From NCBI GenBank assembly GCA_902805485.1, contig CADCTM010000619.1, positions 2,419 through 30,937 on the forward strand: a stretch of DNA of 28,519 bases, in the 5' to 3' direction. Below, one piece after another: positions 2,154 to 5,105 of the stretch; within the stretch, counting starts at the first letter, position 1, and each line of letters begins with the position of its first letter. Source of the DNA: an uncultured Coleofasciculus sp. GTDB taxonomy: Bacteria; Cyanobacteriota; Cyanobacteriia; Cyanobacteriales; Coleofasciculaceae. A program made the translations under genes and the position numbers. The notes under the pieces are model-generated. The model was given only the letters and a program-made list of their open reading frames with translations. It was not told where the DNA came from and did no database searches.

Positions 2154-5105
2154 CTACATAACTCCAGGAAGAACAACACCGACTTGATTGTTAAATATCT
2201 CCATATCCCTTTGATCTTTTTCCTCAAAACTCGCTTGGAAGTACTCAGGAACTGCTGGCCAATCGCTTGAGTCATATTCTGGATAATCGCCGAGTTTTCG
2301 TTTATTAACCAGTTGAGTTACACCTAGCAATTCGCCGTCAGAGCCTAAAACAGGCATACATAACAAGCTACAAGTACGATAACGAGTTTTTTCATCTGTT
2401 TTTCGCGCAATATCCGAGCTGGGATGGTCATAAAGGTCGAAAGAAATATTGACAGATTGACCTGTTTGTGCAACCATTCCTACAAAACCTTCTCCCATTG
2501 GCACTCGCGTTTCTATTAAAGAACCATCGGCTTGAGGAATTTGCGTCCACAATTCATTATTTTGATAATCGACAAGCCACAGCGTACTGCGATCGGCATT
2601 GGTGAGTTTTTTCGCCGCCTGCATTACTTTTTGCAGTAATTCTTCTGGATTTCCGCTACTTTGGCTAACGAAACTGATCGCTTGATACAGCGGATCGATC
2701 GCTTTTCGTTGCTCCTGAATCGTTCGGATTTCCCGATGAAACGATTGAAACGCTAGTAGAATCGGCAGAACAGACTTAGTTCGCTGCTTCAACTTATCCG
2801 CGTCAGTTTGCGTAAACCCATGAGGATCAAGTTGTTCGGACAAAGGAACATTATGCACAAGTGGGGATTTTAACTTGTTGAAAGCGCGAACAATTGCTAA
2901 TATCTGCCCCTTCTGATTCATAATTGGAAATAACAACACACTCTGTAGTTTATGGATGCTTAACGGACTGATCCCTCGGTAGATTAAAACATCATTAAAC
3001 TTCCCCGGTTGATTGCTTGCTTTTACAGATTTTGTTCCCACAATCTTACTAGCAATCCCTTGACTTGCCGAAATCCGAATTTCAGTCGCGCTTGTCTCTC
3101 CTTCTTCTAAAACTAACGACCAAAACCCCGTTTCTTCCGCATCCAAAATAAAAATAGTTGTGTGTTCCGCCTCCAATAAATTACCAATTGATAACTTAAT
3201 AAAACTCAGGAGATGGTAAAGCGCATTGTACAACGCTTCATCACTTTGCTCCGCCACAGAATTACTCAGTACAGCTAACGCATTATAAATCGCTTCTTTA
3301 GGTTCAATTTGCGCTAACTGCTTCAAGGTTTCATGGGTTTTAACGAATTGAAGGACTACTCCCACCCGCTCATTAAAAACCTGCATAGACTGGCGGTCAT
3401 TTTTATCAAAACTTGCTTTAAAAAAGTCAGGAACCGCCGGCCATTCGTCTTTGTTATATTCCCCATAATCGCCGGGTTTGCGTTTATTAATCAGTTGAGT
3501 TACACCCAACAACTCACCATCAGGACTTAAAACCGGCATACACAATAAACTACAAGTACGATAACGAGTTTGTTCGTCGGTTTTTTTAGAATTTCCCGCA
3601 CTCGGATGATCGTACAAATCGAACCCAATATTCATCGGTTCGCGAGTTTGTGCAACTTGACCGGTAAAGCCAACTCCAACAGCACAGCGTAGTTCTCCTT
3701 TTCCCGGCAATTCTGTCCACAAATCACCCCGGTCATTATCTACTAACCACAGCGTACTCCGGTCGGCATTCATCAGTTTTTTTGCCGTATTCATCACGCG
3801 CTGAAGAATCGCTTTTGTATCCAAATTAATCTGGTCAAGAGACCGAGTTGCTTCGGCAAGTGCGGCAGTTGCTCTAAGTTTTTTAGTTGCTTTATAACAA
3901 GACTGGCAACTTTCGAGAATCCGCCGAATTGGCACCACACATTTAGCCAAGCGTTCCAAATCTAATTTTGTAAATCCCTTATGCTCAATTTCGGAATGAA
4001 CGTTAGCTTGGGGATGTTCAAAATCAAAGGTTTCTCCTGTGTTATCTCTCCTAAAAGAATGAAGCAATTGTGGAACCGAACGTACTCCAGAAGTTGTCTG
4101 TAACTTGTTTAGTAACTGGATAACCGCAACGACTTCTTTGTCCTCATCCAAAATCGGCAAGGCTAAGATATTTTCGGTACGGTAGTTATATTTCTTGTCA
4201 TACTCTTTAACTAACACCGAGCGTTGGTCATTATAAACATTATCGGGGATATGAATGACTTTCTTGCTTTTAGCAACTTGTCCTGCAATTCCTTCTCCGA
4301 CTCGCACTTGGATATCGAGGAATTCACCTTCTTCATTCTCGGCAACTAGTGACCAAAGTTCTGTCTTTTCGTCATTGAGTAAAAAGATTGTCGCACGGTC
4401 TGCACCCAGTAATTCTCCGACTTTTGAAGTAACATCGCGCAGAACTTCATAAAGTGCTTGAGCCGAACTTTGTTCTTCTGTTTCATCATCTACCCGCGAC
4501 AAGATATCGACTTGAGACACGAGCAGTTTCCGTTCTAATTCAGCCAGGGTTTTGAGAAATTCGGCATCAGTTGGCGCCAATTCGGACTCAATCGAATTCA
4601 AGGCGTTTTCAACCCAAGTTTTGCTAAATACGGACTCATAAATCCGATTATGAACCTTTAACTTGCCTTGCTGCTTAATGACTAAACCTGATAGCCGTAG
4701 TTCCTTTTCTTCTGCGCTGTCATTGGCTGCTACTTCATCCTCTTGTAGGATGCGTTGATAGAGTTTCAAAAGCTTTAAAGAGCGCTGCTTGCGTCGGAGA
4801 AGGCGATCGCGTATTGTCCTGAGATGCTCTAGTTCTGGTAGGTTCTCCCACTTCTCAATTAACTGATGCATTACGACTTGTTCGAGCCATTCAGCTTCAG
4901 CGCCAGTTGCTGGAGAATCCGCTGCCGCAACGATTAATTTACACAACTCCTGAGTGAGGAAAGGCTGTCCTCCCGTCCACTGCAACACTGTGGTGATTAA
5001 TTTTTTATAATTTTGCGTTTTTTCTTTTAATCGTCTCGCAATTAGTACTCCGGTATCAGTGCCTCCGCTTATTGGCGAAGATTGTGGCGAGTTGGTTGAG
5101 ATCAT
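2154..5105 (-). CDS. Multi-GAF protein: AAA_35-type helical tail plus two CyaB1-like GAF-A/GAF-B tandems, no catalytic output domain
   Basis: N-terminal WTGGQPFLTQELCKLI...LSGLV...NRIYESVF segment. Four GAFs with ADRxT, LxxP and NK...FxxxD motifs. GAF2 and GAF4 are near duplicates (YRTCSLLCMPVL in both). ATG at 5105 preferred. Confidence 0.85.
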   Translation of the reverse strand: MISTNSPQSSPISGGTDTGVLIARRLKEKTQNYKKLITTVLQWTGGQPFLTQELCKLIVAAADSPATGAEAEWLEQVVMHQLIEKWENLPELEHLRTIRDRLLRRKQRSLKLLKLYQRILQEDEVAANDSAEEKELRLSGLVIKQQGKLKVHNRIYESVFSKTWVENALNSIESELAPTDAEFLKTLAELERKLLVSQVDILSRVDDETEEQSSAQALYEVLRDVTSKVGELLGADRATIFLLNDEKTELWSLVAENEEGEFLDIQVRVGEGIAGQVAKSKKVIHIPDNVYNDQRSVLVKEYDKKYNYRTENILALPILDEDKEVVAVIQLLNKLQTTSGVRSVPQLLHSFRRDNTGETFDFEHPQANVHSEIEHKGFTKLDLERLAKCVVPIRRILESCQSCYKATKKLRATAALAEATRSLDQINLDTKAILQRVMNTAKKLMNADRSTLWLVDNDRGDLWTELPGKGELRCAVGVGFTGQVAQTREPMNIGFDLYDHPSAGNSKKTDEQTRYRTCSLLCMPVLSPDGELLGVTQLINKRKPGDYGEYNKDEWPAVPDFFKASFDKNDRQSMQVFNERVGVVLQFVKTHETLKQLAQIEPKEAIYNALAVLSNSVAEQSDEALYNALYHLLSFIKLSIGNLLEAEHTTIFILDAEETGFWSLVLEEGETSATEIRISASQGIASKIVGTKSVKASNQPGKFNDVLIYRGISPLSIHKLQSVLLFPIMNQKGQILAIVRAFNKLKSPLVHNVPLSEQLDPHGFTQTDADKLKQRTKSVLPILLAFQSFHREIRTIQEQRKAIDPLYQAISFVSQSSGNPEELLQKVMQAAKKLTNADRSTLWLVDYQNNELWTQIPQADGSLIETRVPMGEGFVGMVAQTGQSVNISFDLYDHPSSDIARKTDEKTRYRTCSLLCMPVLGSDGELLGVTQLVNKRKLGDYPEYDSSDWPAVPEYFQASFEEKDQRDMEIFNNQVGVVLPGVM

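Follow-up and report, generated by a model that had tools for sequence, protein, structure and literature searches.

What does a protein do that carries the sensory domains of an adenylyl cyclase twice over and no enzyme? The question is raised by a 28,519-nucleotide stretch of DNA (the window) from an uncultured Coleofasciculus sp. (contig CADCTM010000619.1, assembly GCA_902805485.1), the minus strand of which encodes a 983-residue protein with four GAF domains, P0001. Our analysis reveals that P0001 is a headless STAND-GAF4 protein, in which two CyaB2-type GAF tandems follow the HD1-WHD module of an AAA_35 STAND NTPase that has no P-loop domain. We infer, with a probability of roughly 45%, that P0001 is a stand-alone receptor for cyclic AMP (cAMP), in which the two tandems would pair with each other and relay ligand binding through the HD1-WHD module to a putative protein partner.

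P0001 is a complete, enzyme-free protein

The P0001 reading frame extends from an ATG at 5105 to a TAG at 2156–2154. A second in-frame start candidate, a GTG, lies upstream at 5144; the ATG is preferred because the spacing from it to the GxP motif, 44 residues in P0001 and in nearly all 84 short homologues, matches that in orthologues (38–52 residues). Pfam and NCBIfam scans of P0001 returned zero PAS, cyclase, kinase, or phosphodiesterase domains, and tblastn searches of the window and 43 orthologous loci, with a positive control included, detected neither a CyaB2 cyclase nor a PAS domain. The C-terminus of P0001 is the final GAF4 helix, and all 113 near-complete proteins among 121 aligned terminate at the same place, 13–37 residues past the last GAF4 motif. 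The sequence-only reading had described an open reading frame that ends right after GAF4 without a catalytic domain; that description holds, and truncation is refuted.

The gene is under strong constraint. The ratio of non-synonymous to synonymous substitution rates (dN/dS) is ~0.05–0.09 over the whole gene, purifying selection is seen on every domain, and strain variants comprise 19 synonymous changes versus 1 non-synonymous change. An independent DNA contig crosses the stop codon, with zero indels within the gene; contigs from an RNA run span the gene, and intergenic DNA likewise, and are therefore no evidence of transcription. The gene is genuine and enzyme-free, and it is neither truncated nor an assembly artefact. 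An unpublished genome, G202 (locus L002), contributes one of the 43 genomes with a headless gene and one dN/dS row, and the conclusions are independent of it.

That P0001 is a truncated or decaying gene might be suspected because neither an enzyme nor the ancestral P-loop domain is present, and because a 748-residue relative also lacks GAF4. Against this stand the 84 headless homologues, which have common ends and form one clade, together with the purifying selection and the independent contigs, and we assign decay or artefact a negligible probability. At the sequence level, this evidence rules out a relic of a broken cyclase or a broken STAND. Relatives that end after GAF3 do occur (L050:3627-5870, 748 residues; P0316, 762 residues), indicating that GAF4 can be lost in some lineages.

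The N-terminal module derives from a STAND NTPase

The sequence-only reading had treated P0001 as a protein of GAF domains only. The absence of an enzyme stands, but residues 22–172, which were overlooked, form a folded, STAND-derived module. In particular, the module is 49% identical to the matching part of a full-length STAND paralogue encoded on contig C875 of the same genome, and residues 17–206 are modelled confidently, with a predicted local distance difference test score (pLDDT) of 89.9. Structural alignment matches the module to the HD1-WHD of WRR4A (Z 8.2, 132 residues aligned, root-mean-square deviation (RMSD) 3.8); the other whole-module matches, at middling Z values, are a wheat resistosome, the archaeal ATPases 2qen and 2fna, and CED-4, all of them STAND NTPases. 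In the Atlas, the module aligns with AAA_35 proteins at template-modelling scores of 0.71–0.81, and an Hpt cluster contains a similarly shaped part. Foldseek and Protein Data Bank (PDB) profile searches with the module returned nothing significant, and its placement came from the wide structural alignment and the Atlas. We accept the STAND identity because the homology to the C875 paralogue and the Atlas agree with the middling Z values: residues 22–172 are the HD1-WHD half of an AAA_35 STAND (NLR-like) NTPase, minus the P-loop core.

Walker A (RQMGKS) and Walker B are absent from P0001 and from every headless homologue. Searches of the window and 43 orthologous loci, again with a positive control, found no P-loop remnant, and a hidden, frameshifted P-loop domain upstream of the gene is rejected. 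The headless form retains the core W, Y, N, and F residues of the module and has gained conservation at K27, K29, Y33, and H152, while its D-E-P-x-H motif, which hardly varies in full STANDs, is relaxed. A module profile hits 5481 cluster representatives. Among the best 148 of these, by a ranking that favours repeats, 89 carry more than one copy of the module, and several carry modules without Walker A, for example two to four modules plus TPRs. The NTPase has thus been lost on more than one occasion, which suggests an independent role for the module, protein docking being the simplest. Eight NTPase-free proteins with two to four modules, most with TPRs (P0246, P0249, P0261, P0263, P0310, P0315, P0322, and P0337), begin with a motif resembling the cyclic di-GMP motif of MshEN (PMC5013675), mostly minus the first Arg; Pfam gives no MshEN match for them.

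A winged helix could instead bind DNA, which would make P0001 a one-component transcription factor under cAMP control. Residues ~88–178 resemble ArsR/MarR winged helices (Z 6–8), and the mean net charge of the module is +5.0 in headless proteins versus +3.1 and −0.2 in clades II and I, respectively, of the full-length relatives described below. However, the whole module matches only STAND NTPases, Z values below 8 may reflect a common arrangement alone, and the WHD of STANDs is a regulatory subdomain; we consider a role in transcription very improbable.

The GAF tandems are CyaB2-type

Residues 176–590 and 591–983 of P0001 are 39% identical (E 3e-98), confirming the earlier assignment of four GAF domains in the order A-B-A-B. 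In the PDB, the closest match is 1YKD, the CyaB2 tandem (E 1.8e-104, 45% identity; next match E 4.6e-17), which also ranks first in Foldseek. The genome encodes a CyaB2 orthologue, C356 (E 6e-158 to 1YKD), and a second cyclase, C11 (E 8e-82), which we take to be the CyaB1 orthologue. The tandems of P0001 are 44% and 40% identical to C356, versus 33% to C11, and the GAF-B of C11 (YVTRNILCMPV, with a short NK-to-F loop) is unlike that of P0001. By the 1YKD match and these identities, the GAF-B pattern YRTCSLLCMPV...NK...W...ASFD, which the sequence-only reading had ascribed to CyaB1, is a CyaB2 pattern, and the tandems are, as judged by sequence, CyaB2-type and not CyaB1-type, and they are also nearer to CyaB2 than to phosphodiesterase GAF domains.

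All four GAF domains were said to keep the N, K, F, and D of the NKFDE motif and to lack the terminal E, and the alignment bears this out. The retained residues are N333/K334/F378/D382 in GAF1, N540/K541/F566/D570 in GAF2, N743/K744/F764/D768 in GAF3, and N934/K935/F960/D964 in GAF4, conserved at 93–100% in all four domains; the E position is occupied by L383, R571, A769, and Q965, respectively, and a complete NKFDE is not present. The missing E is not diagnostic, because the GAF-B of the genome's own CyaB2, C356, reads D-Q at the end of the motif and is also without E.

Two pockets retain the cAMP contacts of CyaB2

The tandem in 1YKD forms an antiparallel dimer, and T363 of CyaB2 GAF-B is one of its cAMP contacts. 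The contacts R291, T293, I308, D356, and N359 are from PMC4411481. In GAF2 and GAF4, the pocket Arg and Asp are present in 100% of the 84 headless proteins, the equivalent of T293 is T or S, that of I308 is I or L, and that of N359 is T (S in some GAF4), as is also T in C356. GAF2 is the most conserved domain of all (dN/dS 0.02–0.03). The A-type domains, in which pocket positions were mapped by analogy with GAF-B, differ from one another: GAF1 conserves R237, T239, D303, and T310 but carries V299 (100%) and Y306 (94%) in its lid, where CyaB2 GAF-A has Ala and Thr, and GAF3 has lost its pocket, with the Arg replaced by H (50%; H648 in P0001) or Q (19%) and the lid D and YRT gone. The paralogous clade I (118 proteins like the C875 gene) has the opposite pattern, with GAF1 degenerate and GAF3 intact. 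The likeness to ligand contacts of the cyclase thus extends to GAF2 and GAF4, which keep them; those of GAF1 are altered, and those of GAF3 are lost.

The sequence-only reading had proposed a stand-alone cyclic-nucleotide receptor, and this is reasonable because the enzyme-free protein is conserved and its GAF2 and GAF4 keep the cAMP contacts. From these contacts we infer that P0001 binds cAMP. The isolated CyaB2 tandem, without the cyclase, binds cAMP with a half-maximal inhibitory concentration (IC50) of 0.05 µM and ~50,000-fold selectivity (PMC4411481).

The ligand could also be cyclic GMP (cGMP) or another purine nucleotide, or two ligands could be integrated. The conserved V299 and Y306 of GAF1 are compatible with this, isolated CyaB2 GAF-B also binds cGMP (IC50 7.6 µM; PMC4411481), and some clade I operons adjoin a gene for an Npun_R2479-family HD-domain protein. 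GAF2 and GAF4, however, match the contacts of cAMP-bound GAF-B save at N359, where they have the T of the local CyaB2, and a ligand other than cAMP alone is improbable. The HD-domain gene (L051:10294-11172, NF045583) is divergent from a type-A/type-B STAND operon, and the same gene, judged by sequence look, is found at L052, L054, L055, L060, and L078; its product is possibly a nucleotide hydrolase of the STAND system.

P0001, which has at most three pockets and lacks a catalytic domain, might also be a sink or buffer for cAMP without any output, its N-terminal module merely stabilising the fold; the module does evolve faster than GAF1 and GAF2. Its dN/dS of 0.06–0.16, its fixed start, and its lineage-specific conserved residues argue otherwise, as does the loss of a pocket, which is unexpected for a pure buffer, and we regard buffering as decidedly improbable.

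Headless proteins descend from full-length STAND-GAF4 proteins

Approximately 30 homologues of 1140–1215 residues open with a complete AAA_35 P-loop domain, and these full-length STAND-GAF4 relatives are 52–60% identical to P0001 over 97% of the query. In the tree rooted on clade I, the headless proteins make up a single clade (Shimodaira–Hasegawa-like approximate likelihood ratio test (SH-aLRT) support 100) within full-length clade II. All four-GAF tandems form a single branch (98), separate from the CyaB2 cyclases, which fits one capture of a CyaB2 tandem followed by duplication. The length of the cassette junction is near-constant, with F577 and F652 separated by 75 residues in 79 of the 84 headless proteins. 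The same STAND type has been fused separately to a whole CyaB2-like cyclase or to GAF-GAF-PAS, and CyaB2-type sensors were accordingly captured more than once. Such type-B STANDs are found at L074:1879-5901, L075:2988-6818, and L076–L079; the cyclase of L075 looks degenerate, and most of these genes lie directly behind a type-A STAND gene. One weak match (24% identity) was obtained in a search of proteins of 1722–4915 residues, which argues weakly against long fusions.

Many full-length STAND-GAF4 genes follow a type-A STAND gene that carries TIR or helix-turn-helix (HTH) domains, the linkage being looser in clade II; a STAND gene beside the headless gene was found at 0 of 44 loci. Sequence comparison thus supports loss of both the P-loop domain and the type-A STAND neighbour in the headless lineage. 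Headless, clade I, and clade II forms are able to share one genome, so the headless gene is a paralogue in its own right. In the window's genome, one type-A/type-B STAND pair is on C875. The clade I gene there (L044:3775-7056, G000:C875) is interrupted within GAF4 by an in-frame TGA that lies 35 bases short of the contig end and is probably a sequence error because a 99% identical protein, P0122, has 1180 residues; a TIR-like type-A STAND is encoded three genes upstream.

Named carriers of the headless gene include the cyanobacteria Coleofasciculus, Allocoleopsis, Symploca, Symplocastrum, Roseofilum, Lusitaniella, and Leptolyngbya. A near-full-length headless gene is present in only 4 of 201 sampled genomes of the phylum, and its product is annotated in databases only as 'GAF domain-containing protein'. 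Of the 43 genomes with a headless gene, ~25 also carry a full STAND-GAF4, and 9 of 10 that were tested contain AAA_35 genes above the cut-off.

These counts bear on the possibility that P0001 is a cAMP-gated decoy or brake on AAA_35 STAND pairs, with the HD1-WHD module docking onto a STAND protomer and, without a P-loop domain, being unable to extend the oligomer. Direct descent from a STAND sensor, the NBD-WHD contact between adjacent protomers that is the main interface in Avs7 (PMC13581612), and the co-occurrence, including the pair on C875, would all suit a decoy. In contrast, G093, which is 99% complete and belongs to the same genus, has an intact headless gene and no AAA_35 match above the cut-off, albeit as a single genome; the 44 loci contain no STAND genes; and motifs invariant in STANDs have drifted. 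We regard a decoy as unlikely.

The sequence-only reading had also raised heterodimerisation with CyaB. In this form, with CyaB2 in place of CyaB1, P0001 would be a trans-acting regulatory subunit that pairs with the cyclase GAF tandem and alters cAMP feedback. All 43 genomes with a headless gene contain a CyaB2 match, a few of them split or partial, and the identity of the P0001 tandems to the local CyaB2 is also consistent with pairing; nothing beyond co-occurrence supports such a heterodimer. Yet the co-occurrence is expected, because CyaB2 is common without the headless gene: of the 45 genomes with a match in the 201-genome sample, most have only cyclase-length matches and lack the headless gene. 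In addition, a cyclase gene is present at 0 of 44 headless loci, the connecting helices of the two tandems have diverged from CyaB2 in opposite directions, and the conserved N-terminal module would be left unexplained. A cyclase subunit is thus quite unlikely.

A model for P0001

We return to a soluble, stand-alone cAMP receptor. In a history that the trees support, a type-B AAA_35 STAND NTPase took up a CyaB2 GAF tandem as its C-terminal sensor; the tandem was then duplicated head to tail, two paralogous clades arose, and the P-loop domain was lost in one lineage together with the adjacent type-A STAND gene. According to our model of P0001, cAMP would occupy GAF2 and GAF4, and possibly also GAF1, whose specificity would be altered, while GAF3 would serve as a ligand-free structural partner. 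The two tandems probably pair together, replacing the CyaB2 dimer. Specifically, the connecting helix reads S..F in CyaB2, C..C in tandem 1, and F..F/Y in tandem 2, the same in all three clades, and the complementary C..C and F..F(Y) helices are suggestive of self-pairing. Ligand binding would move the long helices, and the HD1-WHD module, the only folded outlet because nothing follows at the C-terminus, would dock a protein partner. An incomplete gene of the same genome (L047:1-735, G000:C722; open at the contig start) encodes a single A-type CyaB2 GAF, a helix (C-Q-x-C) resembling that of tandem 1, and a short tail.

Several points weigh against this model. The trees are quick ones, with SH-aLRT support only. 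The bulkier, conserved lid residues of GAF1 and the degeneration of GAF3 mean that specificity may depart from that of CyaB2, the selectivity of which requires the A and B domains jointly (PMC4411481). CyaB2 output exits via the C-terminal helix (PMC4411481), at the opposite end from the HD1-WHD module. The helix complementarity is at the level of sequence, not placed on coordinates; a complex prediction of GAF1-2 with GAF3-4 and cAMP scored 0.00, which is evidence neither way; and the monomer model of the whole protein has a predicted template-modelling score of 0.35 and an RMSD of 9.9 to the 1YKD arrangement, and with this low confidence the domain geometry and relay path stay conjectural. 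Across the 44 loci, no same-strand neighbour, as expected of an operon partner, is conserved.

A wider proposition, which is tentative and on balance doubtful, is that filamentous cyanobacteria contain NLR-like STAND pairs in which the sensor is triggered by cAMP via CyaB2 GAF domains, with P0001 as an NTPase-less offshoot in which HD1-WHD is now a free-standing signalling domain.

Features of P0001 and its surroundings

The convergent HTH-like gene downstream (Table 1) may be linked to the headless gene only by synteny, the loci being mostly close kin. On the other side, a divergent gene (5632–6132, plus strand) encodes a 166-residue stand-alone GAF protein of another type, which adjoins the P0001 gene only in the window and L001. 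Between it and the P0001 gene, an 8-bp inverted repeat with a 7-base loop (5505–5527; loop 5513–5519) is present, and the loop is inverted in 4 of 4 other data sets. Farther away, 576–1118 (plus strand) encodes an HAD-IIIA/GmhB-like phosphatase; its start differs from that of the L061 orthologue and overlaps an upstream DCC1-like gene, and it is possibly frameshifted near its 5′ end.

Table 1. Positions in the window of P0001, its domains, and adjacent features.
Feature	Coordinates	Strand	Residues	Remarks
P0001 gene: headless STAND module plus duplicated CyaB2-type GAF tandem	2154..5105	minus	983 aa	
HD1 (WTGGQP, GxP motif) and winged-helix domain of AAA_35 type-B STAND NTPase	4590..5042	minus	22–172	
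Helices equivalent to CyaB2 pre-GAF helix	4467..4589	minus	173–213	Join module to GAF1
GAF1, A-type	4098..4466	minus	214–336	R237, T239, V254, D303, T310 retained
GAF1 NK-F loop insert	3990..4097	minus	337–372	Fast-evolving; pLDDT <50; dN/dS 0.3–1.2
Tandem 1 connecting helix	3825..3989	minus	373–427	Conserved C400 and C403
GAF2, B-type	3312..3824	minus	428–598	CyaB2-like pocket: R449, T451, L466, D510, T513, T517
Head-to-tail junction of the two CyaB2-derived cassettes	3243..3311	minus	599–621	
GAF3, A-type	2871..3242	minus	622–745	Degenerate pocket; fold under purifying selection
Tandem 2 loop and connecting helix	2649..2870	minus	746–819	Conserved F786 and F789
GAF4, B-type	2157..2648	minus	820–983	Canonical pocket: R839, T841, I856, D904, T907, T911
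Terminator-like hairpin, 13 pairs	2057..2086	minus		~70 bases past stop; 1 found versus shuffle mean 0.1
Convergent 191-aa gene, weak Cro/C1-type HTH	1409..1984	plus		Tail to tail in 26/44 loci

Significance and comparison with known systems

In cyanobacteria, cAMP governs gliding, the formation of mats, and recovery after desiccation; a review names CRP-type transcription factors as the receptors (PMC4284465). The DNA of the window comes from biocrust and soil samples, and a conserved, enzyme-free candidate receptor in crust- and mat-forming lineages could be tested as a further output of cAMP. In addition, the family offers a named candidate ligand for AAA_35 STANDs, proteins abundant in these genomes on whose function we found no paper, and it illustrates the reuse of STAND subdomains without the ATPase. 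If the wider proposition on NLR-like STAND pairs is true, P0001 would represent a new class of cAMP receptor and would connect NLR-type assemblies with signalling by cAMP. Searches of the literature for cyanobacterial AAA_35, STAND, and GAF proteins, with a coverage that mostly excludes subscription journals, found no description of the headless or full-length form; the parts are known, and their combination and descent appear undescribed.

P0001 shares with CyaB2 (1YKD) the A-B order, the pre-GAF helix, the extended GAF-B loop, and the cAMP contacts in the B domains. It differs in having the tandem duplicated, one A pocket lost and one altered, no PAS domain or cyclase, and an N-terminal STAND module. 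CyaB1 likewise has a GAF-GAF(-PAS-cyclase) arrangement, but its similarity, with C11 taken as CyaB1, is a distant 33%, and its GAF-B sequence and NK-F loop are unlike those of P0001, which shows the CyaB2 pattern.

The AAA_35 (PF14516) STANDs have a homologous HD1-WHD, and their type-B proteins carry WD40, PAS, CHASE2, or GAF tails; unlike them, P0001 lacks the Walker A/B domain, and its gene has no type-A (TIR/HTH) STAND gene beside it. NLR and AP-ATPase receptors (WRR4A, CED-4, and Avs) also comprise an HD1-WHD fold followed by a ligand-sensing C-terminal region, whereas the sensor of P0001 is a second-messenger GAF array, with neither NTPase nor effector and with no firm defence match in PADLOC (2023 model library), which gave only a weak 45-residue Cas11a match (E 4e-4) for P0001 and none for the full-length relatives. 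Ternary iSTAND systems keep an inactive NTPase domain, alongside MoxR and vWA genes (Kaur et al. 2020, PMC7159879). In P0001, by contrast, the NTPase domain is deleted, and neither MoxR/vWA genes nor same-strand neighbours recur beside it; what P0001 and iSTAND have in common is a catalytically inactive STAND derivative in multicellular bacteria.

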